DNA of 32,000 bases from Opitutales bacterium (lineage in GTDB: Bacteria; Verrucomicrobiota; Verrucomicrobiia; Opitutales; Coraliomargaritaceae). Where the stretch lies: the NCBI GenBank assembly GCA_049606355.1, contig JBMYVL010000003.1, forward strand, positions 150,001-182,000. The letters run 5' to 3'. Positions 14,339 to 30,625 of the stretch are shown here, in pieces; the first letter of the stretch is position 1, and each line of letters begins with the position of its first letter. The position numbers and the translations under genes were made by a program. The notes beneath the pieces are model-generated. The model was not told the DNA's origin, did not search any database, and saw only the letters and a program-made list of their open reading frames with translations.

Positions 14339-14349
14339 GCCGCCCTGCG

Positions 14350-14988
14350 TTGATAGAACTCGCACTGAACAGAGACCCCCGCTGCATGGATGCCTTTTTT
14401 GACATAGTCCCACGATGCTGGAGCATTTGGATGAGCGGTGGCTGGGTGATGATCCCTCTGGTTTTACTGGCAGCGCTGATCTACACCAATGGGATGCAAC
14501 TCCTCCTGTCCCTGAACGCCCGCACCGCGGAAATGGGTCGCGAAAGCGAATGGATCGAGTGGATCCACAATCCACAGTCAGCGAGTGGTCGCGTGGGTGA
14601 AATTATTCGCTACACCCAGGATAACGTCCGCCACGCCAAACAAGTGCGCAATCGTTTTACCGAGGTGAAGCAAGCAATGATCCACACGATTGATCGGCGC
14701 CTCACTTTCCTCAATACACTTGTCGCAGCCGCGCCGTTGATGGGCTTATTGGGCACCGTGATTGGGATGCTTGGTACCTTTGCCGCGATTTCAAGTGGTG
14801 GCGGTTCGGAAACCGCCGCTAAAGTCGCTGAGGGTATTTCGGAAGCACTGATTACCACCCAAACCGGCCTCTTTATCGCCCTGCCCGGAATCTTCCTGGT
14901 ATTATTGATCCGCCGCCGCAAGCACGCCATTGAAGCCGCCCTGGCGCGCATGGAAGCGATGAGCCTCACCAAGCTCAAACTCGACTGA
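14350..14988 (+). CDS. exbB: ExbB/TolQ-type proton channel subunit
   Basis: 212-aa ORF with motifs [13 protein letters not shown] and [15 protein letters not shown]. The track start is TTG; the ATG at 14386 or 14431 is the more likely start. Confidence 0.85.
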
Positions 14989-15028
14989 TTTTTCTTTCTT
15001 CCTTTCGACCCTAAACCCAGCAGCTGTT

Positions 15029-15427
15029 ATGCGACGTAATTTAACCTCCGATGACCGAGACGATGTAGAGATCAATCTCTCCCCCATGATCGACATGGTC
15101 TTCATCCTTCTGATCTTCTTTATTGTAACGACCGTGTTCGTCGAAGAGACCGGCGTCGAAGTCAACAAGCCCGAAGCGGCGGCTGCAGTGCAGTTGGAAA
15201 AAAACAGTATCCTCATTGCCGTCACCAAGGATAACAAGGTTATCTACGGAGGTCGCGACATTGGTATCAGCGGTGTATCTCCGATTGTGAAGCGCTTAAC
15301 GCTCAACGAAGATATTCCCGTCATCATTCAGGCCGATGAAGGTGCCAGCCACGGGGTCTTCGCTCGTGTCTATGGCGAGGCCAAGCTTGCCGGCGCAAAA
15401 GCCATTAACTTTTCCACCAAGCGCTAG
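15029..15427 (+). CDS. exbD: ExbD/TolR biopolymer transport protein
   Basis: 132 aa. [21 protein letters not shown] single TM containing the conserved Asp, plus a periplasmic domain. Confidence 0.9.
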
Positions 15428-15460
15428 GCGGGCGCTCCCTGAATCCTTGTTCTAAATTCG

Positions 15461-16120
15461 ATGGCACCGCTTTATCAACCCCCTACGGGACAAAGTACGC
15501 AGCAACGCGGCACCATTCTCGGGATCGGCGTCTGCGCGCTGCTTTTTTTGGCCATTCCGCTGACACAAATCTTCACGGAATACGAAAAAGCACCGGAAGC
15601 CATTGATGCTCTTGAAATTGCGCCGCCACCGCCACCACCACCGCCCGAGGAACCGCCGCCTCCGCCGGAACCAGAGGAAGAAGAGCCGCCCCCGGAGCTG
15701 GATACGCCGCCCCCGCCCATTACCCTGGAGCAACTGGACATGGCACTCAACCCGGGTACCGGCGGATCGCTTGCTGGCGATTTTGCGATGCCGAGTTTCA
15801 ACGCAAAAAAAGAAGACTTGGGTACGCTCGACATCTTCGACATCGGCGATTTGGACAACAAACCCAGACCCAGAAAGCAATCGGCACCCAAATACCCCAG
15901 TACGGCGAAACGACGTGGGCAGGAGGGCTATGCGATCGCCGAATTCATTATCGATGAATTTGGCAATGTCGTGAATGTAGAAATTAAAAATTCCAGTGAT
16001 CCGGTCTTCGAAGCACCCACGATCGATGCCATTCGTGGCTGGAAATTTACGCCCGGTGAAAAAGACGGGCGCAAAGTTAAAACCCGCACCCGCGTCAAAA
16101 TACCCTACACATTGAGCTAG
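15461..16120 (+). CDS. tonB: TonB family energy transducer
   Basis: 219 aa. N-terminal TM, a Pro/Glu-rich spacer ([25 protein letters not shown]), and a C-terminal TonB domain ([26 protein letters not shown]...[10 protein letters not shown]). Confidence 0.9.
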
Positions 16121-16176
16121 TCCTCGCTGCAGCTACCGCACTCTTTTTTCGTTCATCTTCTCTATTTTTCCCGATC

Positions 16177-17553
16177 ATGAAAGCACTCAAACTAATCCTT
16201 CTCGGCATTGCCCTCACCACCCTTCTGGGAACAGCTCCCCTCTCTGCAAAACGGGGCCCGGCCTACCCCGGGGCGGAATTGTGGAACGACGAAAGCTTCG
16301 TCAAGTCCTTCCTCGGCAGCTATGGCGTCTTGGCCGTTTATGAACCTAAAATATCCGACGCAGAAAAAGATGTGCTGCGGAAGCTAATTGATTTGATCAA
16401 GGCGAACCCTAAGGCCGCGATTCAACAGCTTGAGCCACAAATCAAGGCCGGAAGCAGTGCCGCTTTTGACTTCATCCTCGCCAATCTGCATTTCCAAGAC
16501 GGCAATCTCGCCAAAGCTGAACAGTACTATACCAGCGCGACCAAAAAACATCCGAGCTTCCGCCGTGCCTATAAAAATTTGGGCCTCGTCTACATCCAAG
16601 ACGGCAATTTTGAAAAAGCCGTGCCCACGATTTCCAAGGCACTCGAGCTCGGTGAAGTGGATGGCCGTGCCTATGGTCTGCTCGCTTACGGCTATCTCAT
16701 CCAAGAGAAATACTACCCTGCTGAAGCAGCGTACCGCCAAGCGATCCTGATTCAGCCGAATGTCAAAGACTGGAAGATCGGCCTCGCTCGTTGCCTGCTC
16801 GAAACCGAGCGCTACACCGAAGCGGTCGCGCTGTTTGATACCCTACTCAAGGAGGAGCCGGATAACACCGACTTCTGGCTGCTGCAAAGCAACGCCTACC
16901 TCGGCAAAGATGAAACCCTCAAAGCAGCACAAAATATCGAGATCGTGCGCCGTATGGGAGCTGCCGAGCTGACCACGCTCAAACTACTCGGCGATATTTA
17001 CATGAACAACGATTCGCCCGAACTTGCAGTCAGCGCTTATTTAGCGGCCGTTGCCATTGCCGAACCAAATCAGAATGAACCACTGGTGCGTGCCGCCGAT
17101 ATTCTGGCTCAGACCGCAAACTTTGAACAAGCGAAAGAATTGATCGCGACCATCCGTGCCAAGGCCAACGCCACTCTCAGCGAAGCACAAGACCTGACTT
17201 TACTGATTGCCGAGGCAAAAATTGCCCGCGATGCCGGTGACAATGAAACCGCAGTCGCCACCCTACACAAAATCGTGGAGCGTGATGCCCTCAACGGCGA
17301 TGCGCTGATTGAGCTCGGCAACTACTATGCCGATCAAGACCTGATGGCAGAAGCAATCACGCGCTATGAACAAGCTTCGCAAATCAGCGCCAGTGAGCGC
17401 AAAGCTCGTATCGCACATGCGCAGGCACTGGTTCAAAAGAACAACTATCGCGAAGCGCTGCCCCTGCTCAAACGTGCCCTGAAGATCCGCAGCGATCGCG
17501 CTCTTGAAGACTATACCGCACGCGTCGAGCGCGCCGCGAAAAATCAGAGCTAA
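16177..17553 (+). CDS. Secreted tetratricopeptide-repeat protein (TtpD-like last gene of the TonB2-type cluster)
   Basis: 458 aa. Signal peptide, then repeated TPR-like A/Y/L patterns throughout (for example [35 protein letters not shown]). Confidence 0.85.
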
Positions 17554-17585
17554 GCACACCGCTCCCACAGCATTCTCGAAAACCC

Positions 17586-17615
17586 ATGCCGTCGCTTCTC
17601 GCGACGGCATTTTTA
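17586..17615. terminator. Strong, probably bidirectional, intrinsic terminator
   Basis: Perfect 10-bp stem ATGCCGTCGC (17586-17595), loop TTCTC, GCGACGGCAT (17601-17610). It is followed by a T-run through 17614 and preceded by GAAAACCC, which gives GGGTTTTC after the hairpin on the minus strand. Confidence 0.8.
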
Positions 17616-17616
17616 T
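17593..17616 (+). repeat. Left copy of the 24-nt direct repeat CGCTTCTCGCGACGGCATTTTTAT
   Basis: 23/24 identical to 26091-26114. It corresponds to the last 3 nt of the left arm, the loop, the right arm and the T-tract of the terminator hairpin. Confidence 0.9.
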
Positions 17617-17621
17617 ACCCT

Positions 17622-17636
17622 TGGCACGCGGCACGC
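17622..17636 (+). promoter_or_regulatory. Weak sigma-54-like -24/-12 candidate
   Basis: TGGCACGCGGCACGC has a perfect TGGCAC and correct GG-N10-GC spacing, but the -12 element reads ACGC instead of TTGC. It lies 75-95 nt upstream of the 17711/17732 start. Confidence 0.2.
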
Positions 17637-17710
17637 CAATGCCACCCCTTTGGCACATCATTGTAACACGTCACCTATTTTTAACTTAGGATCCAATTAT
17701 ACAAATTGAT

Positions 17711-18517
17711 GTGACAATCGTTCGAGGCTTAATGAAAAGCATGTCATTGTTTACTATGCCGATTGCGGTAGCTCTAGTACTGCTTGCTTCTTCAATTCAA
17801 TTGTCTGCTGCGGACAAAAAGGATCCTTTGCATGTAAATGATCCAGTATTACGCTCTCTTCTTGACTCACATATTACCGCTATCGGAGGCTGGTCTAATT
17901 GGAATGCTGTTTCCAGTATGCGTCTGCGAGGCCAAATCGAACGCGAGGGACAGACGATCGACTGCGTTTTTGTCAAAAAGCGTCCCAATTTAATTCGTGC
18001 GACGCTGACACTACCGATTGCAGGTAAGAAGAATCAATCGCTGCAAATGATCCGAGCACACAATGGCAAACACGCATGGAGCACAACACGCATGAGTGGT
18101 GCGCAGGAAGCTCTCAATCACAAAATACTTAATGGCTCAGAAGCTAATGCCTTACTTGGAGATGCCGGTGTTGAACCTTTATTAATACAATTTTGGAAAA
18201 GTGAGGCAAAGCTCACACTTTGTGCATCTGAGCTTGTCGGCGGTCAGCACTGCTTCGTCATTAAAGCGTCCGCTACAAAATTAGACGGAGATTATTTATT
18301 CTATCTCTCTACAAAAAACTTGCGACTGCTCCGTCGCGAGCACGTGCATCCTAAAGAGGGACGTACTGTTACCGACTATAACGATTACCAAACGATTGAA
18401 GGTGTATCGATTGCCAGACGCCAAACAATCGATTCGTCCCAGACTGGCCATACCATTGTTACCATTCAAGGGATCGATTTAGGAATCGGCATCTATGCCG
18501 ATTATTTTAATCAATAG
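17711..18517 (+). CDS. Secreted hypothetical protein, possibly a LolA-like/lipoprotein-sorting-like fold
   Basis: 268-aa ORF (GTG; ATG at 17732 more likely). Signal peptide MKSMSLFTMPIAVALVLLASSIQLSA. The pattern AIGGWSNW...LRGQIEREGQ...VFVKKRPNLIRATL...HNGKHAW...GQHCFVIKA...DYNDYQTIEGVSIARR resembles outer-membrane lipoprotein-sorting-like proteins I recall. This is unverified. Confidence 0.7.
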   Translation: MTIVRGLMKSMSLFTMPIAVALVLLASSIQLSAADKKDPLHVNDPVLRSLLDSHITAIGGWSNWNAVSSMRLRGQIEREGQTIDCVFVKKRPNLIRATLTLPIAGKKNQSLQMIRAHNGKHAWSTTRMSGAQEALNHKILNGSEANALLGDAGVEPLLIQFWKSEAKLTLCASELVGGQHCFVIKASATKLDGDYLFYLSTKNLRLLRREHVHPKEGRTVTDYNDYQTIEGVSIARRQTIDSSQTGHTIVTIQGIDLGIGIYADYFNQ

Positions 18518-18631
18518 AGCCAAACATAGATTACACCCAGTTTTTAAAGCGAAGATTCAATCGCCTCAAAATTATAAAACTATGTAATTAGCCTGCGGCG
18601 CTTGCTGTAATATTCAATTACACATAAGACC

Positions 18632-18639
18632 TGTATAAT
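18632..18639 (+). promoter_or_regulatory. Extended -10 promoter element TGTATAAT
   Basis: Exact TGnTATAAT match 18 nt upstream of the ATG at 18658. An inverted repeat TGTAAT-ATTCA-ATTACA (18606-18622) overlaps the expected -35 region. Confidence 0.35.
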
Positions 18640-18657
18640 TTATAAAATTCTGTAACC

Positions 18658-19344
18658 ATGATACCTGTCAAAAATGTTTTCACATCGATCATGAGTAGTC
18701 AGATATTCACATTAATTTGTTATGCGATAGCTACAAATGGAATCGCGACTCAAAGCGTATCGTATGCTACTCAAATATCGGGTTTAGTTCACTACAAAGT
18801 CAGCGGTTATTGCGAATTTAATGGCAATCTGATGTTTTCAATTAGTGATTTACGAACCGGCGGCAGTAGGTGGTTGAGTCGCGCGCAGGTTTATAACGAT
18901 CTTCAGCTGCTCGAGTTTGATACTCACCAACAAGCTTTTAAAGCAATCTACCGAGGCCAGGAGGTGTACCTCCATCTTAAAAAAACCAACGACGGAACCG
19001 TGGTTTTACCGCAGTCGCCCCCCCTTCAAGAAGAAACCTTGAGCCCCTCCAGAATCAAGCAACTAGTCAGTGAGCTCGAGACAAAGCTCATCGCGGGTTT
19101 GCCAGAGGAATCACACAAGCTGCACACTGCCATGAAGACCTCGATCCAGAATCGTATCGCCGCATACGAATCGAGCTTGATAGCAAAGCAGATACGACAA
19201 GCCGAGGGCAGCGGGCATGAACATGAAACCTCCAGCGGCAAACAGGTGAAGCCCATGATTGGGAGTCTACGCCAAGAAAATCGGATTAATTCAAGAGTGT
19301 GGGCCTCCGATCACATTGAAATTCACGGCGAGCCCCCCCTCTGA
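18658..19344 (+). CDS. Hypothetical membrane-anchored/secreted protein
   Basis: 228 aa. N-terminal hydrophobic segment (IFTLICYAIATNGIA), a small beta-rich region, then a predicted helical, charged C-terminal half. I recognise no family. Confidence 0.65.
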   Translation: MIPVKNVFTSIMSSQIFTLICYAIATNGIATQSVSYATQISGLVHYKVSGYCEFNGNLMFSISDLRTGGSRWLSRAQVYNDLQLLEFDTHQQAFKAIYRGQEVYLHLKKTNDGTVVLPQSPPLQEETLSPSRIKQLVSELETKLIAGLPEESHKLHTAMKTSIQNRIAAYESSLIAKQIRQAEGSGHEHETSSGKQVKPMIGSLRQENRINSRVWASDHIEIHGEPPL

Positions 19345-19345
19345 G

Positions 19346-20095
19346 TTATTCCTTTTCAACGAAGTAGGTCCTGATTTCTCCTAGGCCCTCGTGCCTTGAA
19401 ACCACACGCCCCGAGGAAAGCAATTCGACGACAACTGGTAAGGTGCTGTTATCATCAAGATGAAACAGCGTATGACAATACCCTCTTGATAAATAGCCCG
19501 GCATAGACTGAATCAAGGGTGTAAACTCCTCGGCGATGGCATTGATATTCTGTTTATTACCCAGTGGATCCAAGTATACCAGACAGGTCTGGTCGCGTTC
19601 TTCAGTCGAGAGCTCACGATAAAATTGATCTGCCTGCCATACTGCTTCCTTTGTTTCGATCTCATCGGAGCGACCATAAAGGATAATCCATCGTGAAAAT
19701 TTATTCACAATGTGAGACCGAAGCGGTAACTGCCACCCACTTTCACCGCTAATTATCTTGTTAGCGAAAAAATAGCTCATTCGAGGAACATATTTGTTGG
19801 GAACGTTTTGCGTTTCCACCCCAGCAAGATTCTGCATGACATCCGTACTATCGATAGCCACTGGATAAACCCCAATACGTGGAAAATCTGCTAAAAGATA
19901 CCCGTCATTCAGCGGTCTTAACAGAATAAACCGAGTGCCCTCTTCGATCATCTTTGATGCATCACTCGGCTGAAAATCTTCAATGAGATTTCCAAAGAAA
20001 GGGAGGCGCTGTTCTTCCTCATCAGTTAGCTCCACGCCCGAGAGAGATATCAGCATGGATAAAAATACGAATATAAGCGATAAGACCTGTCTCAT
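19346..20095 (-). CDS. Hypothetical secreted protein
   Basis: 249 aa. Signal peptide MRQVLSLIFVFLSMLISLSG. I recognise no family. Its stop codon lies 1 nt from the stop of the convergent 18658-19344 gene. Confidence 0.65.
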   Translation of the reverse strand: MRQVLSLIFVFLSMLISLSGVELTDEEEQRLPFFGNLIEDFQPSDASKMIEEGTRFILLRPLNDGYLLADFPRIGVYPVAIDSTDVMQNLAGVETQNVPNKYVPRMSYFFANKIISGESGWQLPLRSHIVNKFSRWIILYGRSDEIETKEAVWQADQFYRELSTEERDQTCLVYLDPLGNKQNINAIAEEFTPLIQSMPGYLSRGYCHTLFHLDDNSTLPVVVELLSSGRVVSRHEGLGEIRTYFVEKE

Positions 20096-20156
20096 AATTA
20101 AAGCGTCGGTTTTATTGGAAAGATACCTGTATACCCAGAGAGAGATTGAGTTCAGT

Positions 20157-20185
20157 AAAAAAGCACCTCCCTAATGGGAGGTGCT
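20157..20185 (-). terminator. Rho-independent terminator after the PEP-CTERM gene
   Basis: On the minus strand: AGCACCTCCC ATTA GGGAGGTGCT followed by TTTTT (plus-strand stem 20162-20171 / 20176-20185, A-run 20157-20161). Confidence 0.75.
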
Positions 20186-20211
20186 TGAAATAAGTCTATT
20201 ACTGTAAGTGT

Positions 20212-20823
20212 TTAGCTGCGGCGGCGAACTGCAGCGAAGCCAAGTGCAACCACACCCGCAATTACAGCAAACGACGACGGCTCAGGAACAACCGTACCGG
20301 TAATGGCAAAGTTGTCGTAGAGACCGCTTGCGGTAGGTGTGAAGCTATGAGATGCTGATGCAACTCCATCCAGAGAACTCAGATCTACAGTCACCTTATT
20401 GAAGTCCGTAGCTGATCCAGTTGCGGAGTAAGCATAAGTCAACTCCAGACCAGTCAAGTTAGCAGCGCTGAAGTTGAGGGTGAAGGAATCGTTTCCTGTA
20501 AGGGATTGGAAACCTTGCTCAGCGCCACCAAAGTTTTGACTGAATGCCGTGAAACCAGTCGTCGGATCGCTAAAACCGAATGCATCGTTCGCAGCAGTGT
20601 CATTAAAGCTGGCGCTAATGCCAAACTCTGATGTGAAAACAAATGGAGGGTTCGCAGGGGAATGCGTCCAGCTTAGAGTTGCCGCACTTGCTTGAGAACC
20701 CCAGTTAGCACTTGTAGATGCTGCTGCCTGGTTAACCCCATCGAAATCCCATCCAGCAACAAATGACTGCGCGTTCACGGTCAATGCGACTGTAAGAAAG
20801 AAGGTATTGATTAAATTTTTCAT
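20212..20823 (-). CDS. PEP-CTERM sorting-domain protein
   Basis: 203 aa. Signal peptide MKNLINTFFLTVALTVNAQS, a Ser/Thr/Ala/Asn-rich beta-type body, and the canonical C-terminus VPEPSSFAVIAGVVALGFAAVRRRS (PEP motif, TM helix, Arg cluster). Confidence 0.9.
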   Translation of the reverse strand: MKNLINTFFLTVALTVNAQSFVAGWDFDGVNQAAASTSANWGSQASAATLSWTHSPANPPFVFTSEFGISASFNDTAANDAFGFSDPTTGFTAFSQNFGGAEQGFQSLTGNDSFTLNFSAANLTGLELTYAYSATGSATDFNKVTVDLSSLDGVASASHSFTPTASGLYDNFAITGTVVPEPSSFAVIAGVVALGFAAVRRRS

Positions 20824-20859
20824 TATACTCTTTATTTTTTGATAATTTTTACCACTGGA

Positions 20860-22317
<1,458 letters not shown>

Positions 22318-22412
22318 AGTTTGATAGTTAGTTAACCTGAATCATTCAGGTGGGCCTATCATAGAAGAAGAATGTGACAGCCCTAGGGCTTGAGGGTTAC
22401 GAAAAGGTGAAA

Positions 22413-25400
22413 TTAATATTCGTATGAAAAGCTTACCGAATAAACCCTACCCTTCTTGTATTTATCACGCTGTATTTTGCCATACTCCAAACCCTGATCC
22501 CCGGAAGAGACCGACTCATAATAAGTCCCGCGGCTAGAATTCGTCAGATTCTTGGCTGTAAATCCAAACTTCAAGTGATCATTGATACGCTTCGAAAGGG
22601 TAAGATCAAATGACGAATAGGACTCTTCAAACACATCATAAGAGTTTACCAAAGATGTCCCTTTGAGGACATCGCTGATGTGGTAAGCTATCAAAGATAC
22701 ACGCAGCCCCAAATCTTCATTTTCGTAAGTAAGATCACCGCTGAAGATTTCGGAAGGCTGCTGGGTCAACTGACGCGATCGGTAATTATCTAGGTCTTCT
22801 TCGGAAACGAGCACTCCTGCCTTGTCCTTTGCGGCCACCTCTACGGGGAAGCGATCCACCTTGCCGCTAATACGAGTAAAACTTCCTCCAATGCTTAAAT
22901 CCTCTAAACCCGAAAAACCAAGACCCTTCCGAAACTCGATTTCAAAACCCTTGAGTGTAGCTTCGTCGGGGTTATTATACCAACTGTATAGTCCAGCTCC
23001 GATGTTTTGTGAGGAAGCAAAAATCTGGTAGTCGTCGTAATCATCAGAGTCAGACGAATCCGCTCCCAATCCCGCAATACGTTCGATTCGATCAGCAATG
23101 CGCTTCTTGAAAATCCCGACGGAGAGATAATCTCCAGTATCATTGTTGTAGGACCAGCCCATATCCCAATTCTTAACTTTTGAAGGTTGTAGACTCAGAT
23201 TCCCCACCTCCACATCAGTGCCCGCCAGCTCACTGCTGGCGTAAGGTGACACTTCCCGGGCTGACGGCAAAGCAACTGTCTGCGAATAGGATGCTCTGAG
23301 TGAAAATTTCTCGTCCAAGCTTTTACAAATAATCGTTGCCGATGGCAGGAATGATTTTTTGTTATATCCACCCGACAGCGGCTGATTTTCGAAGGGGTTA
23401 TTAAAGCCCGCACCGCGTAAGATGGTCTGACGATTAACTCTGACATCAGCCGAATTATTTTCGTGGCGGTAGCCAGCAATGAACCTGAAGCAGGAGGCAC
23501 CTTCAAATTGATGATCTAGCATCAGATATTTAGCTGTAGACTTAGTCACCAGATCCACATCAGCTGCCACGGCATATCCGGTCGGAACAAGCCCATCAAA
23601 ATTAGACATTGGAGCATTGGTGTTTTCAGAAACAGGTACCACATCGCTAATATATTCGAGCTCTAGGAACTCATCGAATACAGTGCGCCTAGAGTCAGAA
23701 CCCAATACTCCGAGCTTCACTTTAGTTGCCAATCCATCCGAGTGGTCCTCATAGAACGTAAAATCCAACTTTCTGCTGTCTTTCTCATCATTGATGCCTC
23801 GCCAAATTAGGTAGGATGGTTCCGGAGTTGCTGAGGCAGTTGAATTCGTCGACAAAGTGAAATCACCTTCGGCCGATGAAATAATGCCCCTTGTTTGCAA
23901 GTAGCCGGGCTCATCCTGCTTTGCATGATCCGAAGACAGCGCCCAATTAATATCCATGTCCCCCAAAACAAGCCCCGGGACTTCCAACGTGTGCTCGCCG
24001 CTCAACTGAACCCGCTTTAAGCCTCTCTCTACGTAGCGCAGACTCTCTTGGATCTGATAGTCCAGCGAAGATGCCGTGTCGAGCACACCATCTCCATCAG
24101 CATCATAATCAAGTATACTGTCTGCATAATCTGGCTCCCAAATCCCCCTAAACGGAGCCTGATAATAGCGACCATAAACACCCGATGCTCCACGAGCATC
24201 GAGTCGAGCATTAATATCCTCGGATACATTTAGATCGAGTGCCGAAAAGCTAAGCCTGTGCTCATCCGAAAGCTCTAAACCCAGAACAGCAGACAAAGAT
24301 AGGGTTGAAGTAGTTGTAGACTCAGACAAAAGCGCTCTATGATAACCAGTCGCAACTCCAGGATTCACAAAGTTCTTTGGGGTCAATCCACGCTCACTAC
24401 CGGGCTCGACATAACTCCTGAAATAATCCGTATTTTCTATAAATTCTGATGTTCCGGAGTAATTTAGACCAAATGAATAACCCATACGCGGACCGGAGTT
24501 ACCCCAATTATAAACGTCACCAAAACTAAATTTTAATCCATGATTTGGATCCGAATTCTCACCATAATTGTGTTTCGCGATACCCACACTTTCTGAAATC
24601 GCACTTAGCTCCGCAACGCCGGCATCGAAATCTGCCTGCGAAATAAACAAAGCTGGCAGAATGGTTGCGAATTGATCATTGATCGTTTTGTCAAATACGT
24701 TAGGAAATGGCCCCTCCGCTGCACCGCCAGGGAACGCTCTTTTGTCCGCAGCCATCGCCCAGCGATCACGAGAAGTGGCTCGCCGATTCCTCAAGTAGTT
24801 GTTGTTACCCTGTACGTTCGAATTTAAGCCCGCGCTTACCGAAAGTTTTAGGAAAAAATCTTCTGGAATCGGGTTCACTCCCAAATTGATTCCCCCCGTA
24901 GAGGTGCCCTGCTGATCCGGGGTAAAGGTTTTGCTTACTTCAACTGAGCTGAAAAGGGATGTCGGGAACATGTCTAACTGTACAGCAAGCCGATCCGGGT
25001 CAGGACTGGCAATCGGCAGTCCGTTCATCGTGGTCGCCACATAACGGTCACCCAATCCTCGAATAACTGCATATTTTCCACCCTCGACCGAAACCCCAGA
25101 AACCCGTTTAACCGCATCACCGATATCACTAGCGGCGTACTTCGAAAAGTCTTCTGCAGTCATCACACTCAAGGCAGCTGCCGAATTAGCGATGAGATCT
25201 AACTTCATCATCATTTCATTTGCCTGCTGCGCGGTCACGGTAAAATCCTGCAGCTCAAAAACCTCATCCGACATCTCTGCTGGGCGAGGCGGTAATGCGA
25301 ACGCAAATTCATGAACAGTCCCCGATTCAAGCTTGAAATCGGTTATATTTGCTTCGAGGAAGCCTGTTTTCACAAAAGTTAATGTGTAGCTACCCGCGGG

Positions 25401-25793
25401 TGCGGGACCCAACTTATACCGTCCTTCCGCATCGGTGATCGTACCAATAGCAGTGTCCTCGAATAGAATGGCCACTGAAGCTAAGGGCATATTGGTGGAT
25501 TGATCCACCACTTGACCCATCACATAAGCTTCTTCCAAAGGGACACGCTCTGGTGGATTGCTGCGATTCTCAGCGGCAACATCCATGCTTGCTTTACCGT
25601 CTTCAGCCGTAGCCGCTGAGGGCGCCCAATGAGTCGCTCGCAAGGAATCTGAAGAAGCTACTTGCACCATTCGCTGCGACTCTACTTGAGCTTGTAATGC
25701 GTTAGGAATTTCAATCTGTATCGCCGCAACAATATCAAATGAGCTCAGTAAGAGAAATATAGAGAACCAGTTACGAGACGAGTAGGCATTCAT
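22413..25793 (-). CDS. TonB-dependent receptor with N-terminal carboxypeptidase-regulatory-like domain
   Basis: 1126 aa. Signal peptide. CarboxypepD_reg-like segment (GQVVDQSTNMPLASVAILFEDTAIGTITDAEGRYKLGPAPAGSYTLTFVKTGF). TonB-box-like DEVFELQDFTVTA. Plug (DIGDAVKRVSGVSVEGGKYAVIRGLGDRYVATTMNGLPIASPDP). Long beta-barrel ending in ...RVYSVSFSYEY with a terminal aromatic residue. Confidence 0.95.
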   Translation of the reverse strand: MNAYSSRNWFSIFLLLSSFDIVAAIQIEIPNALQAQVESQRMVQVASSDSLRATHWAPSAATAEDGKASMDVAAENRSNPPERVPLEEAYVMGQVVDQSTNMPLASVAILFEDTAIGTITDAEGRYKLGPAPAGSYTLTFVKTGFLEANITDFKLESGTVHEFAFALPPRPAEMSDEVFELQDFTVTAQQANEMMMKLDLIANSAAALSVMTAEDFSKYAASDIGDAVKRVSGVSVEGGKYAVIRGLGDRYVATTMNGLPIASPDPDRLAVQLDMFPTSLFSSVEVSKTFTPDQQGTSTGGINLGVNPIPEDFFLKLSVSAGLNSNVQGNNNYLRNRRATSRDRWAMAADKRAFPGGAAEGPFPNVFDKTINDQFATILPALFISQADFDAGVAELSAISESVGIAKHNYGENSDPNHGLKFSFGDVYNWGNSGPRMGYSFGLNYSGTSEFIENTDYFRSYVEPGSERGLTPKNFVNPGVATGYHRALLSESTTTSTLSLSAVLGLELSDEHRLSFSALDLNVSEDINARLDARGASGVYGRYYQAPFRGIWEPDYADSILDYDADGDGVLDTASSLDYQIQESLRYVERGLKRVQLSGEHTLEVPGLVLGDMDINWALSSDHAKQDEPGYLQTRGIISSAEGDFTLSTNSTASATPEPSYLIWRGINDEKDSRKLDFTFYEDHSDGLATKVKLGVLGSDSRRTVFDEFLELEYISDVVPVSENTNAPMSNFDGLVPTGYAVAADVDLVTKSTAKYLMLDHQFEGASCFRFIAGYRHENNSADVRVNRQTILRGAGFNNPFENQPLSGGYNKKSFLPSATIICKSLDEKFSLRASYSQTVALPSAREVSPYASSELAGTDVEVGNLSLQPSKVKNWDMGWSYNNDTGDYLSVGIFKKRIADRIERIAGLGADSSDSDDYDDYQIFASSQNIGAGLYSWYNNPDEATLKGFEIEFRKGLGFSGLEDLSIGGSFTRISGKVDRFPVEVAAKDKAGVLVSEEDLDNYRSRQLTQQPSEIFSGDLTYENEDLGLRVSLIAYHISDVLKGTSLVNSYDVFEESYSSFDLTLSKRINDHLKFGFTAKNLTNSSRGTYYESVSSGDQGLEYGKIQRDKYKKGRVYSVSFSYEY

Positions 25794-25914
25794 GAGCAGT
25801 CAGTGAAAACTATAGTTGCTGAGTAAGGTGCAGATGCTTGAATCCAGACTACAGCGACGGTGTCTTAAAAATTAATAAAACTGCACGCCTAGATGGTCGG
25901 CATCTTTTCCAGCT

Positions 25915-25932
25915 CAACGCTAAACAGCGTTG
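25915..25932. promoter_or_regulatory. Perfect 7-4-7 palindrome in the TBDR upstream region (candidate operator)
   Basis: CAACGCT AAAC AGCGTTG, about 120-140 nt upstream of the TBDR start at 25793, within a 317-nt leader/intergenic region. Confidence 0.25.
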
Positions 25933-26090
25933 CAGCCGTTAATATCACACCTCCGTAACATTTGGGTGCCTCAAGTTACAAATGAGTCACAAAACCACCA
26001 ATAGTGCGTCGCCTACAGAAAACTGTAACATCGACAGACTAAGTTCAAAGCGATAGCCACATTGCCAACGCTCGCATCCAAATCTGGATC

Positions 26091-26114
26091 CGCTTCTCGC
26101 GACGGTATTTTTAT
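26091..26114 (+). repeat. Right copy of the 24-nt direct repeat CGCTTCTCGCGACGGTATTTTTAT
   Basis: 23/24 identical to 17593-17616. The left hairpin arm is missing here (only CGC is retained). The repeat overlaps the trpA stop codon (TTA at 26111-26113 on the plus strand). Confidence 0.9.
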
Positions 26115-26929
26115 GCGCTCGTTGGCTTCGCTAAAACTGCCGGTGCACACAGTTCCTTAAGCTTAGCACTCAGCGCTGTAGTGATCGCCGCAGAATCACC
26201 TAAATGATGTGCGATACAATTAACGATCGCACTGCCCACCACGACCCCGTCAGCCGCTTGCGCAACCGTTTGCACGTGCTCGGGGGTTGAGATTCCAAAG
26301 CCCACCACTACCGGTCGCTCCGTGTGTTGCTGAATCCCCGCCACGCGCGCCGCAATATCGTCGGCCATCGAAGCCCGTTCACCCGTAACGCCTTCACGCG
26401 AAACGTAGTAAACAAATCCGGTGGTCGCTTGGCAGATCGTCGCGAGTCGCTCATCGGGAGTGGTCGGTGCCACAATAAAGACGGTCTGCAGCGCCTGCGC
26501 CGCACAGGCCGCCAAATGTGCCTGCGCTTCTTCCGGAGGCAGATCCAGGGTGAGCAAGCCATCAACACCCGCTGCCTTGGCCTCTGCCGCGTACGCCTCA
26601 CTGCCCTTGGCAAAAACCAAATTGTAGTAGGTATAAAAAACAATTGGTACTTCACTGAAGCTCCGCACCGCACGTACCAAATCAAGCACGCGCTCCGAAG
26701 TCATTCCGCTCTCCAGGGCGCGCTGCGCAGCGAGTTGATTGGTTAACCCATCCGCCAAGGGATCCGAAAACGGCACGCCCAGCTCGAGAATGTCGACACC
26801 GCTGTCAATCAGGGTGCGACAGGCCGCTACCGAAGTCTCAAAGTCCGGATCTCCGGCACACAAGTAACCGATAAAACACGCGCGGTTTTGTGCATGGGCA
26901 GTGTCAAAGGCAGCAGCGATACGATTCAT
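26111..26929 (-). CDS. trpA: Tryptophan synthase alpha chain
   Basis: 272 aa. ELGVPFSDPLADG, YYNLVF, GFVYYVSREGVTG and VGFGIS motifs, colinear with TrpA. Confidence 0.95.
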   Translation of the reverse strand: MNRIAAAFDTAHAQNRACFIGYLCAGDPDFETSVAACRTLIDSGVDILELGVPFSDPLADGLTNQLAAQRALESGMTSERVLDLVRAVRSFSEVPIVFYTYYNLVFAKGSEAYAAEAKAAGVDGLLTLDLPPEEAQAHLAACAAQALQTVFIVAPTTPDERLATICQATTGFVYYVSREGVTGERASMADDIAARVAGIQQHTERPVVVGFGISTPEHVQTVAQAADGVVVGSAIVNCIAHHLGDSAAITTALSAKLKELCAPAVLAKPTSA

Positions 26930-27012
26930 ACTCTATGGGGATAGCGAAGACGGGAGCGAGGACGCGAGCCTTTTTCACGACCGACCGCGATGGACTTGGG
27001 TCGCGCAACGCA

Positions 27013-27099
<87 letters not shown>

Positions 27100-27202
27100 T
27101 TAAATCGTCAGTGCGTGTTGTGTTGGGTAACGAGCCCACTGTCAACAAAGCAGGTGGTGAAATTGAAAACCCATGCGTCCTGTCGGGCGAATGCCCGCGG
27201 AA

Positions 27203-27215
27203 CCACCACCTGAGC
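27203..27215 (-). repeat. Exact 13-nt copy of the 5' end of tRNA-Leu
   Basis: CCACCACCTGAGC occurs at 27203-27215 and at 27087-27099 (tRNA acceptor 5' strand plus the start of the D-arm). An inverted 9-mer CAGGTGGTG lies at 27151-27159. Confidence 0.85.
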
Positions 27216-27327
27216 CGAACTAAACCCAGCCTCGCTCGACATCACTCAGGCACCCCAGCCAACGCAGGCGCATCCACCGGTGCACTCTGGAGTTGGCGCA
27301 GCTGATATGACTGCCTAGGCTACTGTC

Positions 27328-27864
27328 ATGACCATAGAAGAACGCCTTGAGAAATACCTCGATCAAAGTCCACAAATTCATCCGTCTGCCTATGTCGCAT
27401 CGGGAGCGATCGTCCTGGGTGCAGTACAACTTGGTGCCAATGCCAGTGTGTGGCATGGTGCTGTGCTACGGGCCGACATCAATCAGATCGAGATCGGCGA
27501 GGGCTCCAATGTCCAAGATGGCACGATCCTACACCTTTCCGACGACTATGGGGTCAACATTGGTCGGTACGTAACCATTGGTCATGCGGCCATGCTGCAC
27601 GCCTGCGAAATCGGAGACGAGTGTATGATTGGCATGCAGGCTACGATTTTAGATGGTGCGGTGATCGGTGCGCAATCGATTGTCGGCGCGGGAGCTCTGG
27701 TGACCAAGGGTACCCTGATTCCCCCCGGCTCACTCGTGCTCGGCTCTCCCGCGCAGGTGGTGCGACCGCTGACAGCGACCGCGCGAAGTCAGTTGAAGGC
27801 TTGGGCAGAGAAATATGTGGTGGTCGCGCAGGGGCATAAAACTCGCTTCGGCTCTACGCTGTAA
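27328..27864 (+). CDS. Gamma-class carbonic anhydrase-like / hexapeptide-repeat (LbH) protein
   Basis: 178 aa. PQIHPSAYVASGAIVLGAVQLGANASVWHGAVLRADINQIEIGEGSNVQDGTILH and continued hexapeptide periodicity, typical of the YrdA/CaiE/PaaY family. Confidence 0.85.
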   Translation: MTIEERLEKYLDQSPQIHPSAYVASGAIVLGAVQLGANASVWHGAVLRADINQIEIGEGSNVQDGTILHLSDDYGVNIGRYVTIGHAAMLHACEIGDECMIGMQATILDGAVIGAQSIVGAGALVTKGTLIPPGSLVLGSPAQVVRPLTATARSQLKAWAEKYVVVAQGHKTRFGSTL

Positions 27865-27904
27865 GCTTGCAATCACGCTGAAACTATTTCTTTTAGGGCG
27901 CAAT

Positions 27905-27919
27905 TGAGACAGAATCTCA
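27905..27919. promoter_or_regulatory. Imperfect 7-1-7 palindrome upstream of feoA (Fur-box-like geometry)
   Basis: TGAGACA G AATCTCA, with 5 of 7 arm positions complementary. It matches about 9/14 positions of the 7-1-7 Fur motif TGATAATnATTATCA as I recall it. It lies only 10 nt upstream of the feoA ATG. Confidence 0.2.
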
Positions 27920-27929
27920 GCAAAGTCCG

Positions 27930-28160
27930 ATGTCCGCACGCCTCCACACCATCCAAAAAGACGGCCACTTTCGAGTGCTTCAGCTCAACGGTGCCAATCA
28001 CTGCATCGCGCGCCTGATGACCATGGGGCTCTTACCGGGTCAGGAAATTCGCCTCGTTCATGAAGCGCCACTCGGCGATCCGATTGCGATCGAATTCAAC
28101 GACTGCCAAGTCAGCCTACGGCTGGCAGATGCCGCTGAAATTGAGGTTGAAGCACTCTAA
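27930..28160 (+). CDS. feoA: Ferrous iron transport protein A (FeoA, SH3-like)
   Basis: 76 aa. FRVLQL...ARLMTMGLLPGQEIRLVHEAPLGDPIAIEF pattern. The stop overlaps the feoB ATG (TAATG). Confidence 0.85.
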   Translation: MSARLHTIQKDGHFRVLQLNGANHCIARLMTMGLLPGQEIRLVHEAPLGDPIAIEFNDCQVSLRLADAAEIEVEAL

Positions 28161-30328
28161 TGAGCACCTCCTCAAACTTGCGAATTGCGCTGATCGGCAA
28201 TCCGAACACCGGTAAAACATCATTGTTTAACACGCTGACGGGCTTACGGCAACAGGTCGGCAACTATTCAGGCGTCACCGTCGAAAAAAAGACCGGCTTA
28301 TGGACCCTCCCACAAGGCCAACAAGTCGAGCTCATCGACCTGCCCGGCACCTATAGCTTAAGCGCTGATTCGCTCGACGAGCGCGTCGCTGTCGATGTGT
28401 TGACCGGCAACCAAGACGCACAACCCGCACCGGACTTAATCATTGTGGTGGTAGATGTTGAGAACCTGCGGCGTAATCTCTTTCTCGCCTCACAAGCTTC
28501 TGAGCTCGGAGTACCGATCGTGATTGCCCTGAACTGCTGGGATGTGGCGGAGAAGAAGGGGCTCCAGATTGACAGTCAACTGCTGCAACAACGCCTTGGC
28601 GTGCCGGTCGTGCCGACCGTGGCCAAGCACCGGCGTGGCACCGAGGAGCTGGCCAAAGCGGTGGAAGCTGCCATACCGCTGCGCCCCATGCTGGTACGCC
28701 CACAATGGCCTGAAGCCGTGCAAAAAGCCTTGCAATGCCTGCGTCGCGAATTCGTCGAGCAACGCGGACAGGCCTTGTGCGAAGGTGAACTGCAACGCCT
28801 CTTATTCGACTCCAAAAGTGCGGTGTGTGAACGTCTCACATGCCCAGCCGCCGCCTACGAACCGATCATTAAGGCGACGCGCGACCAATTGTACCGCGAT
28901 GGCTACCAGCCCGATGCTGCCGAGTCACTGTTGCGCTTTCGTTTTCTGAACCCGCTCCTCAATGACATTCTGGAGCGGCAAGCGGCGCTCAAGCAAACCA
29001 GCAAATCTGAGAGTATCGACCAGTTGCTCCTACACAAAGTGTGGGGGCTCGCGATCTTCGTTGCCATGATGTACGTGGTCTTTCAGTCGGTCTACAGCTG
29101 GGCGGGGCCCCTTATGGATTGGATCGAATCGGGCGTCGGCCTTGTCGGTGATTTTGCCGGGGGCTTGTTGGTACAGACACCGATGCTGCAAAGTTTGGTC
29201 GTCGATGGCATCGTCGGCGGCGTGGGCGCCTTCTTGGTGTTCCTACCGCAAATCTTAGTCCTCTTTTTCTTCATCTCCCTACTCGAAGAATCCGGCTATA
29301 TGGCACGCGCGGCCTTTCTGATGGATAAGCTCTTTAGCTGGTGCGGCCTCAATGGCAAAAGTTTCGTCCCCTTACTCTCCAGTTTCGCCTGTGCGATTCC
29401 CGGGATCATGGCAACGCGGACGATCAGTGACCGCAAAGCGCGCACGATTACCATCCTAATCGCGCCACTGATGAGCTGCTCCGCACGACTGCCCGTCTAC
29501 TTGCTCTTGATCGGTGCTTTCGTCGAGCCTGAGTATGGCCCGACCATTGCCGGTATCACGCTCTTCGCGATGCATTTCGTCGGCGCATTGGTCGCGGCCC
29601 CCTTTGCCTGGGCACTCAACAAGGGTCTCAACCAGGGCAAGCAAGCCGAAGCCTTCGTTATGGAGCTGCCGCATTACCGCGTGCCACACATCAAACACAC
29701 CACGCTGCGCATGTATGAAAGTGGCAAGGAGTTCGTCATCCGCGCGGGTACAGTTATCTTTGCCATGACGCTACTGATTTGGGCGCTGCTCTATTTTCCA
29801 CGCCCTGCTGCGATCGAAGACGCTATCCGCGCCGAGGCAGCATCGATCGAGTCCGTCGCAAACAGCGAAGCCCAACTCACGCATGCCGTGGATGCTGCCT
29901 ATCTGGAGCAAAGCTACATGGGCCGCTTCGGTAAATGGGTACAGCCCATCTTCGCACCCGCCGGATACGATTGGAAAATTACCATTGGGGTACTCGCCAG
30001 TTTTCCGGCACGTGAAATCATTGTCTCGACGCTCGGCATCACTTACTCGCTCGGCGGCGATGTGGACGAAAGCTCGGATGACTTACGCACCACGCTAACA
30101 AACGCACACTGGGAGGACGGCCCGCGCGCCGGAACCCCGGTGTTCAATCTTCCCGTGGCACTATCCATTATGGTCTTTTTTGCGTTGTGCATGCAATGCG
30201 GTGCCACCCTTGCAGTGATTGCCAAGGAGCTTCATTGGGGATGGGCGATCGCCAGCTTTTGCACCCTCACAACCGTGGCATGGATCGCTGCGGTACTGGT
30301 TTACCAACTCGGCATGTGGCTTGGCTAA
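28160..30328 (+). CDS. feoB: Ferrous iron transporter FeoB (G-domain plus membrane permease)
   Basis: 722 aa. G1 motif LIGNPNTGKTSLFN, DLPGTYSL and NCWD G-motifs, then a polytopic membrane domain containing the conserved gate motifs. Confidence 0.95.
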   Translation: MSTSSNLRIALIGNPNTGKTSLFNTLTGLRQQVGNYSGVTVEKKTGLWTLPQGQQVELIDLPGTYSLSADSLDERVAVDVLTGNQDAQPAPDLIIVVVDVENLRRNLFLASQASELGVPIVIALNCWDVAEKKGLQIDSQLLQQRLGVPVVPTVAKHRRGTEELAKAVEAAIPLRPMLVRPQWPEAVQKALQCLRREFVEQRGQALCEGELQRLLFDSKSAVCERLTCPAAAYEPIIKATRDQLYRDGYQPDAAESLLRFRFLNPLLNDILERQAALKQTSKSESIDQLLLHKVWGLAIFVAMMYVVFQSVYSWAGPLMDWIESGVGLVGDFAGGLLVQTPMLQSLVVDGIVGGVGAFLVFLPQILVLFFFISLLEESGYMARAAFLMDKLFSWCGLNGKSFVPLLSSFACAIPGIMATRTISDRKARTITILIAPLMSCSARLPVYLLLIGAFVEPEYGPTIAGITLFAMHFVGALVAAPFAWALNKGLNQGKQAEAFVMELPHYRVPHIKHTTLRMYESGKEFVIRAGTVIFAMTLLIWALLYFPRPAAIEDAIRAEAASIESVANSEAQLTHAVDAAYLEQSYMGRFGKWVQPIFAPAGYDWKITIGVLASFPAREIIVSTLGITYSLGGDVDESSDDLRTTLTNAHWEDGPRAGTPVFNLPVALSIMVFFALCMQCGATLAVIAKELHWGWAIASFCTLTTVAWIAAVLVYQLGMWLG

Positions 30329-30354
30329 ACGCTACCTTGGGCTAAACTTAAGGT

Positions 30355-30537: not shown

Positions 30538-30625
30538 GCTGCTAGTAATTTGTAAATCGACCTTTTGAGTTCGCTCTCCGCGGCGCTGAGTTTATATTAA
30601 GCATAACACTTAGCCACGGCCAGCA

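Follow-up and report, generated by a model that had tools for sequence, protein, structure and literature searches.

The locus examined here raises the question of how six genes that bring no enzyme for their own movement came to lie between a gene for a TPR protein and trpA, flanked by two copies of a short direct repeat. It belongs to a stretch of 32,000 nucleotides, the whole of which was analysed and which we call the window. Our comparisons demonstrate that the six genes, a TonB-dependent uptake cassette, are present in some strains and missing from others, having been inserted into the bidirectional terminator common to the convergent TPR gene and trpA. Through the insertion, 24 bp of the target became duplicated; they comprise the loop, right arm and T-tract of the hairpin, 3 nt of its left arm, and the stop codon of trpA. 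The features of the locus, in window coordinates, are as follows.

12156 to 17553, + strand: TonB2-type operon (Pfam, NCBIfam) encoding a DUF3450 protein (TtpB-like), a large MotA/ExbB protein (TtpC-like), ExbB, ExbD, TonB and a TPR protein
16177 to 17553, + strand: TPR protein in the TtpD position, last gene of the operon
17586 to 17610: perfect 10-bp hairpin with a 5-nt loop, an A-tract on its left and a T-tract on its right, a bidirectional terminator (single copy in L088 and L098)
17593 to 17616, + strand: left copy of the 24-bp direct repeat, attL-like
17617 to 26090: inserted cassette, 8,474 bp, GC 0.47, missing from the conspecific contigs L088 and L098
17711 to 18517, + strand: I1, exported LolA-like protein of 268 aa (261 aa from the ATG at 17732), with a signal peptide visible in the sequence and a match to Pfam PF17131 (E 4e-5) that is below the curated cut-off
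18658 to 19344, + strand: I2, 228 aa, hydrophobic N-terminus, no family match, homologues in the L089, L090 and L095 cassettes
19346 to 20095, - strand: I3, exported, 249 aa, no family match
20212 to 20823, - strand: I4, 203 aa, signal peptide and PEP-CTERM sorting motif (Pfam PF07589)
20860 to 22317, - strand: I5, exported right-handed beta-helix protein of 485 aa (Beta_helix_4, PF28492)
22413 to 25793, - strand: I6, TonB-dependent receptor with an N-terminal CarboxypepD_reg domain, plug and barrel
26091 to 26114, + strand: right copy of the 24-bp direct repeat, attR-like, with the trpA stop codon inside
26111 to 26929, - strand: trpA, tryptophan synthase alpha (TIGR00262, E 1e-84), intact in the occupied and empty forms

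The two copies of the repeat, CGCTTCTCGCGACGG(C/T)ATTTTTAT, have the same orientation and are identical at 23 of 24 positions. They are the only matches to the 24-mer in the window when up to 3 mismatches are allowed, against 0.00 expected from 100 shuffles. The variable base is position 16, which in the left copy is C in the window, L004 and L096 and T in L092 and L097; the right copy of the window matches the left copy of strain L097 at 24 of 24 positions. The hairpin, ATGCCGTCGC-TTCTC-GCGACGGCAT, folds with -18.5 kcal/mol on the + strand and about -20 kcal/mol on the - strand (z about -3.3 to -3.9). It terminates the TPR gene and, where the site is empty, trpA as well. Of the hairpin's left arm, the left copy of the repeat takes in only the final 3 nt; the rest of it consists of loop, right arm and T-tract. 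At the right copy, CGC is the sole remnant of the left arm, the trpA stop codon (26113-26111, - strand) falls within the repeat, and the fold of the region is not significant (-13.1 kcal/mol, z -1.4). The 24-bp target duplication thus left the whole terminator at the left junction and a stump at the right. An earlier sequence-only reading of this DNA had claimed the direct repeat, the placement of its left copy inside a perfect 10-bp hairpin, the stump abutting the trpA stop codon at the right, and a trpA without a terminator of its own in the occupied form, and each of these claims was confirmed. With its terminator split, trpA would now read towards the receptor gene.

Outside the 24-mer, similarity between the two junctions, such as a decayed trpA 3' end at the left one, was not significant (P 0.09-0.7). 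Further copies of the 24-mer were absent from about 6.4 kb of extra conspecific DNA (L091/L098) and from about 90 related loci, a search that covers these sequences rather than the whole genome. A metagenome scan with the 24-mer gave 1 match and was not exhaustive, as it missed L098. An Rfam scan at the gathering threshold returned tRNAs only. By eye, the arms ATGCCGTCGC and GCGACGGCAT are unlike attC or dif. A BamHI site (GGATCC) lies across the right joint; because the window contains 12 such sites, it is not noteworthy.

The same sequence-only reading predicted an empty site of the order TPR gene, single hairpin, trpA. We found this arrangement, with exactly one 24-mer in each case, in two conspecific contigs assembled from separate metagenomes, L088 (Ga0228650_1004395) and L098 (Ga0494230_1209, 92.6 kb). 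Both flanks are 98.3-98.9% identical to those of the window, the two flank alignments overlap by exactly the 24-mer, and repeat position 16 is C in the empty allele. The related claim that the TPR gene and trpA were once convergent and had a terminator in common is also supported by the single hairpin in L088 and L098 and the adjacent, convergent genes in L008, L009, L015 and L094. The result is a base-exact natural before/after pair of gene gain in an uncultured marine Verrucomicrobium, in which the joint can be read to the nucleotide.

All of these sequences derive from metagenome assemblies, and several contigs break near the hairpin. One might therefore suspect that the block was falsely joined, or that the empty contigs were misjoined across the repeat. 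We consider such an artefact barely conceivable. Both occupied junctions are present in at least 6 independent contigs (the left one also in L004, L092, L096 and L097, the right one also in L001 and L002, all assemblies of other samples), and the empty junction occurs in two contigs from different samples, the 92.6-kb contig among them. Moreover, the longest exact run common to the two copies is 15-24 nt, presumably below the k-mers of the assemblies, which for such metagenomes are normally 31 and above.

Strain variation also places the insertion in time. Between the window and L092, a second occupied strain, 1.64% of positions differ in the flank and 1.88% in the block. Since divergence inside the block is about that outside, the insertion is not very recent, and it is older than the divergence of the present strains. 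The haplotypes are mosaic, in that the empty-site lineage mixes SNPs of two occupied lineages; SNPs are dense in the roughly 90 nt around the hairpin, with no peak across the coding flanks.

The inserted genes point to a role at the cell surface. All six are predicted to encode exported or envelope proteins, and they fill the block with full coding density. The AlphaFold model of I5 shows a confident beta-helix (pLDDT 86.6), with only weak fold matches to GH28, PL and AlgG enzymes and no match among PDB sequences; for the I6 receptor, a look-up of the exact protein found nothing on record. Judged by its beta-helix and PEP-CTERM proteins, the cassette may act on a glycan or some other polymer and not on iron. 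The gene order of the left flank is identical to the six genes ttpB-ttpC-exbB-exbD-tonB-ttpD of the Vibrio TonB2 operon, and in Vibrio TonB3, as here, the gene for an outer-membrane receptor adjoins the operon (PMC6957404). This likeness bears on the role of the cargo and not on how the cargo moved. As the locus illustrates, a whole TonB-dependent uptake module without mobility genes of its own can be gained right behind the operon that powers it.

No integrase or transposase was detected in the block by Pfam, NCBIfam and PHROGs searches of the six proteins or among ORFs of at least 40 aa, and terminal inverted repeats of the block were not significant (P 0.06-0.39); that such features were missing had been noted from the sequence before, rightly. 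The block is a clean but fairly ordinary genomic islet, without an enzyme for its own movement. The direct duplication of the target at both ends could recall transposition with a 24-bp target-site duplication, by a non-autonomous transposon or a casposon-like element. This idea is effectively refuted: the block has neither terminal inverted repeats nor a transposase or Cas1, 24 bp is far above the usual length of a target-site duplication, and a second copy of the block ends was seen nowhere in the sequences searched.

Base composition changes at the repeats. GC is 0.470 for 17617-26090, as against 0.552 in the left flank and 0.560 in the right, and 1-kb windows average 0.471 in the block versus 0.553 outside (Mann-Whitney p = 4e-5). 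The contrast extends to GC3, which is 0.41-0.52 in the six block genes and 0.57-0.68 in 19 flank genes; GC skew keeps its sign in the block. The AT-rich block of the sequence-only reading was thus right in direction and boundaries, but its hand counts of 30-45% GC inside and 55-65% outside were too extreme. The cassette is GC-poorer than its flanks in L060, L089, L090 and L095 as well, so that only part of the GC contrast supports import.

Where, then, did the cassette come from? In the nearest other species, L008 and L009 (TPR protein 77-79% identical), trpA and the TPR gene are adjacent and convergent and the site is empty; L015 and L094 are also empty, with the TPR gene beside trpA. Four other members of the Coraliomargaritaceae (L060, L089, L090 and L095) carry a cassette of identical gene order, placed immediately behind the terminator of the TPR gene, and no flanking repeats were found around these four cassettes. 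The site between the TPR gene and trpA holds a deep-branching type of cassette in L060 and a TA module plus a cassette in L029, and may be described as a recurrent variable spot in the family. On this gene order, the cassette is the usual companion of the TonB2-type operon in the Coraliomargaritaceae and not an alien mobile element.

Protein similarities within the family are discordant. I5 of the window is 82% identical to that of L089 and 81% to that of L090, which are 80% identical to each other; for the TPR protein, the window reaches 64/63% with L089/L090, which again are 80% identical to each other. Four cassette proteins (I3, I4, I5 and the receptor) resemble those of L089/L090 more than those of L095 or L060, and the flanks have no such preference. 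Because of gene-order parsimony and this discordance, we infer that the cassette was probably imported from another Coraliomargaritaceae lineage into an ancestor in which the TPR gene and trpA were adjacent. The earlier notion of a foreign segment survives in part: block and flank proteins do tell different histories, but the same cassette stands behind the same operon in L060, L089, L090 and L095, and the segment is no alien element. A search for a donor in a sister species found nothing between 82% and 100% identity for I5 or between 77% and 99% for the TPR protein. In L089, 7 nt separate the terminator hairpin and its T-tract from a following TTGGCA, and the window has the same motif after 6 nt; the left junction looks native to the cassette. 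The hairpin stem of L060 is similar (GCCGTCGT/ACGACGGC).

Vertical inheritance from a family ancestor would make all empty sites, including those of L088 and L098, deletions, and the repeat no insertion scar. It would account for the presence of the cassette behind the TPR gene of several deep lineages (L060, L089, L090, L095), for a block that has diverged between strains as much as its flanks, for an empty-site haplotype that is a mosaic of two occupied ones, and for a block GC below that of the flanks in every genome. Nonetheless, we regard it as improbable. A deletion cannot create a 24-bp duplication in which the terminator stands whole at the left and is reduced to a non-functional fragment at the right; furthermore, the nearest species are empty, and the similarities of the cassette proteins disagree with those of the flank proteins. 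The L088/L098 lineage may still have lost the cassette precisely via the repeats, which would agree with our preferred reading.

Several candidate attachment sites were considered and rejected. A conserved hairpin serving as att throughout the family does not fit, as the hairpins of L089, L095 and L094 are unrelated and L008, L009 and L015 have none. The trpA 3' end as a general att site yielded, in 84 loci, only the L029 case and an unrelated repeat in L087. The tRNA-Leu beside trpA was considered as an island target, but it plays no part, as the block lies on the opposite side of trpA.

Food for the remaining argument is the mechanism itself. The best reading is one conservative recombination event with the terminator as the joint. 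We favour host recombination, and not a dedicated integrase, as its agent, at a probability of about 0.5, ahead of a recombinase supplied in trans. The donor cassette would already have stood directly behind a TPR-gene terminator, whose hairpin and T-tract could have given short homology or microhomology for one joint; the other joint would have been illegitimate, between GGATC and CGC. This could have taken the form of a Campbell-type single crossover of a circularised fragment or, alternatively, of homology-facilitated illegitimate recombination in which a free end was ligated within the displaced anchor. The cassette would now be a presence/absence allele in a recombining population, movable by recombination in its flanks, and precise loss via the 24-bp repeats might restore the terminator.

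Both processes insert DNA without a dedicated recombinase, with one joint in a short common sequence and the other arbitrary, and a single crossover duplicates the common segment on both sides of the insert. They are known from laboratory transformation with longer anchors, whereas the 24-bp anchor here is at the lower limit of efficient RecA recombination. In B. subtilis, the minimal efficient length is >40 bp (PMC4824099). With 24 bp at or below that length, host recombination would have been a rare event. A circular or anchored donor would also need about 24 bp identical to the recipient terminator, and hence to be a close relative, but identity to the closest cassettes sampled is no more than 62-82%, and the hairpins of these have other sequences. 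Neither a donor genome nor a circular junction was found in the sequences searched: the 24-mer scans, of which the metagenome scan missed L098, gave no contig with the circular, attP-like arrangement (CTGGATC, the 24-mer, then ACCCTTGGC).

An exact direct repeat with a precise empty site is, in addition, the classic mark of site-specific recombination. It is possible, though less probable than host recombination, that the block carries cargo alone and owes its movement to a recombinase from another part of the genome, or from a passing element, with the 24-mer as att core. Such a cassette would circularise, integrate in the terminator (attB) and excise precisely, much like a CIME or a mobilisable island. 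The exact 24-bp direct repeats, the precise empty site in two conspecific contigs and the coincidence of the composition shift with the repeats all agree with this. The perfect 10+5+10 palindrome and the AT-rich 8-mer may resemble binding arms and an overlap region. If the empty allele was deleted from a parent with C at the left and T at the right, its C puts the crossover in the last 8 nt, ATTTTTAT, and outside the longer, 15-nt identical run, which suits a defined AT-rich crossover site slightly better than host recombination. Finally, the end of L003 coincides with the outer edge of the right repeat, which would be expected of a sample containing both alleles.

Against this, no recombinase is encoded in the block or elsewhere in the 32-kb window, and there is no space for a decayed one, the intergenic stretches at the block ends being 94 and 297 nt long and promoter-like. 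The 24-mer was absent from the viral contigs that we searched for a phage attP and from every other locus examined, and among the 84 loci the trpA 3' end does not recur as an att site. Homologues of the cassette occupy the same locus in four other genomes without repeats, and the hairpin sequence varies from species to species, so that their common position cannot be put down to one att specificity. Should a recombinase acting in trans be found, it would define a new system of cargo-only modules; if there is none, the locus would be a well-documented natural case of recombinase-free additive gene transfer.

Known mobile systems each resemble the locus in part. A cis-mobilizable element (CIME) is what remains of an ICE or IME after decay, with attL and attR retained and the genes for integration and transfer gone (PMC5704250). 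CIMEs and other integrase-less, att-flanked islands have, as here, attL/attR-like direct repeats and a precise empty site in relatives. By definition, however, a CIME has an ICE or IME as its ancestor and occupies an att site used by a known family of integrases, whereas remnants of such an element and a known integrase are absent here and the cargo is native to this very locus in related species. No other element with the same core was seen in viral contigs or related loci. Of the hallmarks of integrative elements, the locus thus displays target-derived direct repeats and a single-copy empty site, and it lacks an internal integrase or recombinase.

The minimal mobile elements of Neisseria (PMC1797815) and the replacement flexible genomic islands of marine bacteria (PMC4033161) likewise have variable or no content between two conserved genes, no mobility genes and cell-surface functions, and they are exchanged in a recombining population, as may also be the case here. 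Alternative content is found here too, since L008, L009, L015, L094, L088 and L098 have no genes at the site between the TPR gene and trpA, which is filled in the window, L060 and L029. These elements and islands are exchanged by double crossover in the flanks with no target duplication, in contrast to the 24-bp duplication and the coding flanks free of substitution peaks at this locus.

Integron cassettes and Xer-dependent pdif modules (IMEX) resemble the block in carrying cargo without a recombinase and in having a short, partly palindromic boundary site. The block differs from them in that no attC- or dif-like sequence is apparent by eye, its repeats are in direct rather than inverted orientation, and its six genes lie on both strands, with a GC skew that does not switch sign. 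A bolder idea, which we rate as a long shot, is that the cassette family consists of cargo-only receptor modules plugged in and out by a chromosomal recombinase at the hairpin behind the TonB2 operon. If true, this would be a docking system for outer-membrane uptake modules, with a logic analogous to that of integron and pdif cassettes. It would also explain two unrelated types of cassette at one site with empty sister lineages, the filled and empty sister pairs being the window versus L008 and L060 versus L094.

The 8,474-bp block at 17617-26090, between the TPR gene (+) and trpA (-), forms together with one 24-mer a presence/absence polymorphism within one species. The 24-mer, CGCTTCTCGCGACGG(C/T)ATTTTTAT, occurs twice in one orientation (17593-17616, 26091-26114), with 23/24 identical positions, and these are its only two matches in the window with up to three mismatches allowed (0 in 100 shuffles). 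Part of the left copy is contained in a perfect hairpin (17586-17610; 10-bp arms, 5-nt loop), preceded by an A-tract and followed by a T-tract, that folds at -18.5 and about -20 kcal/mol on the two strands (z -3.9 and -3.3). In the right copy the left arm is reduced to CGC and the sequence continues into the trpA stop codon (26113-26111, - strand); folding gave no significant hairpin in this region (z -1.4). Pattern search with shuffles and folding therefore uphold the direct repeat and hairpin geometry described in the sequence-only reading. Around the hairpin (17558-17648) conspecific contigs carry nine polymorphic sites in ~90 nt, compared to 1-2% elsewhere, which accounts for three assemblies (contigs L005, L006 and L091) all breaking at 17565.

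Genes of the block and its flanks
12156-17553, left flank: TonB2-type operon for a DUF3450 protein, a large MotA/ExbB protein, ExbB, ExbD, TonB and the TPR protein
17617-26090, block, + strand: LolA-like protein; 228-aa protein
17617-26090, block, - strand: 1126-aa TonB-dependent receptor with a CarboxypepD_reg domain; 485-aa Beta_helix_4 protein; 203-aa PEP-CTERM protein; 249-aa protein
Right flank: trpA; tRNA-Leu; gamma-carbonic-anhydrase; FeoA; FeoB; GAF genes

The left-flank operon has the same architecture as ttpB-ttpC-exbB-exbD-tonB-ttpD of Vibrio (PMC6957404). Six genes fill the block completely, and all six proteins start with a signal-like hydrophobic segment. The 485-aa protein is confidently modeled as a right-handed beta-helix (pLDDT 86.6) whose fold resembles carbohydrate-active beta-helix enzymes only weakly (best E 2e-3); a sequence search of the PDB gave no match. 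As previously claimed for the block, searches of Pfam, NCBIfam and PHROGs found no recombinase or transposase there or in the rest of the window, and a repeat test found no terminal inverted repeats; the latter contradicts transposition. A strong terminator-like hairpin on the - strand (20161-20186; 11 pairs, T-run), between the PEP-CTERM and 249-aa genes, suggests that the four cassette genes on this strand do not make up a single simple operon.

The best relatives for trpA belong to the Opitutales (Coraliomargaritaceae/Puniceicoccaceae group) with at most 80% identity, so the window represents an unsampled species of marine Verrucomicrobiota; among 5.8 billion proteins, none falls between 77% and 99% identity to the TPR protein. 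In a non-exhaustive metagenome collection, scanning for the 24-mer hit a single contig, L088 (Ga0228650_1004395, 5,065 bp). Its positions 1670-5065 align to window 17616-14222 (98.9% identity) and 1-1693 to 27783-26091 (98.3%); exactly the 24-mer is covered by both alignments. The order reads TPR stop ... GAAAACCC ATGCCGTCGC TTCTC GCGACGGCAT TTTTAT, directly followed by GCGCTCG (trpA). The same empty junction occurs independently in another sample, in L098 (Ga0494230_1209, 92.6 kb), which was reached via a partial TPR protein and is collinear with the window over 21 kb except for the block. The pattern scan missed L098 even though L098:10934-10957 is an exact 24-mer, so the single hit says little about copy number. 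The empty site that had been predicted (TPR gene, single hairpin, trpA) is thus present in two conspecific contigs. The occupied left junction recurs in other assemblies (L004, L092, L096, L097), as does the right one (L001, L002, contigs that extend from trpA into the receptor gene). These recurring junctions and the two independent empty contigs contradict an assembly artefact. Moreover, the longest exact run common to the two copies is 15-24 nt and the usual assembly k-mers for such data are 31 and above, therefore neither form should be a false join. Contig L003 (Logan, SRR27204693) stops precisely where the right repeat has its outer edge (L003:2684-2707, window 26091-26114), and L096, from the same run, begins just before the hairpin; such an end is the de Bruijn expectation if SRR27204693 held both an occupied allele and an empty one with T at position 16, the variable base.

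In the nearest species (L008, L009; TPR protein 77-79%, TonB 84-89% identical to the window) trpA and the TPR gene are adjacent, convergent and 47 nt apart, and they are likewise adjacent and convergent in L015 and L094. Given that the nearest species are empty, that a deletion cannot make a duplication, and that the right copy is truncated while the left terminator is whole, the locus began as a TPR-terminator-trpA arrangement into which the block was inserted. A vertical history that involved nothing but deletions is contradicted by the empty nearest species and by the right copy, a truncated, non-functional piece of terminator. Between occupied L092 and the window, divergence is 1.64% for the flank and 1.88% for the block; with values this similar, the insertion is as old as the present strain diversity. 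Position 16 of the left copy is C in the window, L004 and L096 and T in L092 and L097, the L097 left copy matches the window's right copy at 24/24 positions, and both empty sites have C; the base that differs between the copies is polymorphic among strains. Along the TPR gene, the haplotype of the empty sites resembles the L091/L092 group in its left half and the window group in its right half, a mosaic which shows that the population recombines. No SNP pile-up was found in the coding flanks. The empty allele may either have persisted from the ancestral state or have arisen by precise loss via the repeats. On the other side of trpA (26930-31110), tRNA-Leu(CAG) (27013-27099, -; with a 13-nt copy of its 5' end at 27203-27215), gamma-carbonic-anhydrase, FeoA, FeoB and GAF genes precede the next - strand gene, which in L098 is a 530-aa HMGL-like/LeuA-type gene. 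This order is seen only in the window's species (window, L088, L098), and in L008 and L009 the HMGL-like/LeuA-type gene abuts trpA; it is a second lineage-specific rearrangement beside the block.

The cassette gene order (receptor, beta-helix, PEP-CTERM and 250-aa protein, plus one or two opposite-strand genes) also stands directly behind the TPR-gene terminator in L060, L089, L090 and L095. In L060 the cassette lies between the TPR gene and trpA as in the window, in L090 the LolA-like gene is absent and pst/porin genes lie on the far side, and L095 is from an organism close to C. akajimensis. Related receptors lie downstream of trpA in L029 and L023. None of these loci has flanking repeats. 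The "foreign segment" proposed from the sequence was indeed inserted; it is not an alien element, as relatives carry the same cassette at this locus.

Protein identity to the window in L089/L090; L095; L060
TPR protein: 64/63%; 64%; 69%
485-aa protein: 82/81%; 72%; 36%
Receptor: 62/62%; 53%; 54% over part of its length
249-aa protein: 51/51%; 36%; 23%
PEP-CTERM protein: 59/54%; 49%; 35%

For the 485-aa protein, the identity between the window and L089/L090 equals that between L089 and L090 (80%). By contrast, the TPR proteins pair as window/L008 (77%), L060/L094 (81%) and L089/L090 (80%). Judged by these identities, the window cassette is of the L089/L090 type and its flanks are not, a discordance which indicates transfer within the family Coraliomargaritaceae. 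L060 (10784-19772), whose deep-branching cassette has a beta-helix protein only about 35% identical to the others, and L094 (11375-11482, genes adjacent) form a second occupied/empty pair, making the TPR/trpA site a recurrent variable spot. The TPR-side hairpin of L060, GCCGTCGT-ACGAG-ACGACGGC, is similar to the window's stem. GC is 0.470 between the repeat copies and 0.552 and 0.560 outside, with GC3 of 0.41-0.52 inside and 0.57-0.68 outside; the AT-rich block had thus been delimited correctly, but hand counts exaggerated the contrast. Part of this contrast is a property of the cassette family, since every related cassette compared has a GC 3-8 points below its own flanks.

The structure demands a conservative event leaving the same 24 bp on both sides. 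This could have been one reciprocal crossover between the locus and a circle, or the capture of an anchored strand followed by joining of its free end within the anchor. We give host recombination a probability of about 0.5. A donor fragment with its own TPR-gene terminator would find short homology exactly at the recipient terminator, explaining why position and orientation are shared with other species, and host recombination would account for the lack of a mobility gene and of repeats elsewhere. In L089 the terminator hairpin and T-tract are followed by TTGGCA after 7 nt, in the window after 6 nt; hence the left junction looks native to the cassette and the right joint (GGATC to CGC) is the novel one. 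However, the terminator of such a donor would have to be almost identical, and 24 bp lies at the limit for RecA recombination. Alternatively, a site-specific recombinase may have acted in trans, which we consider rather unlikely: the exact repeat and precise empty site are its classic marks and the core holds a palindrome and an AT-rich 8-mer, but nothing else speaks for it: block and window contain no recombinase or element remnants, no second element with this core and no att conserved across species were found, and among 84 loci the 3' end of trpA does not recur as a target.

In another species (L029:10743-11611), 50 nt from the 3' coding end of trpA recur as a perfect direct repeat (10743-10792, 11562-11611) around a ~770-nt insertion with an antitoxin-like ORF, a PIN-domain (VapC-like) toxin and no recombinase; a new tail of 7 codons has been added to the first trpA copy. 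It adds a second case of an insertion at the trpA end that is flanked by repeats and lacks a recombinase. L087 carries a 27-nt exact, hairpin-like direct repeat, CGGGCGGACGAGGCGTCCACCCCCCGT, at 1279-1305 and 6368-6394, 5 kb apart; one of the copies lies immediately downstream of trpA, and the repeat may be a terminator element that recurs in that genome.

The block is a strain-variable genomic islet, direct-repeat-flanked and without its own recombinase, and its junctions are unusually well documented. Empty site, repeats and hairpin confirm both the original observation and its interpretation. With att-flanked islands it shares repeats and a precise empty site, but not the recombinase inside the element. 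It shares attL/attR-like repeats and the absence of mobility genes with CIMEs (PMC5704250), but not derivation from an ICE or IME. Neisseria minimal mobile elements (PMC1797815) and marine replacement islands (PMC4033161) likewise have variable content between conserved genes, surface functions and no mobility genes, yet unlike the block they leave no target duplication.

In the occupied form, the TPR gene would retain its terminator and trpA would lose its own, with the receptor gene 317 nt downstream on the same strand. Both cassette ends (17617-17680, 25960-26070) carry GTAAC/GTTAC palindromes and TTGGCA/TGCCAA motifs, which also flank the L089 cassette (L089:150-200, 8570-8600), and these are probably a shared operator or promoter element of the two inward-facing transcription units.
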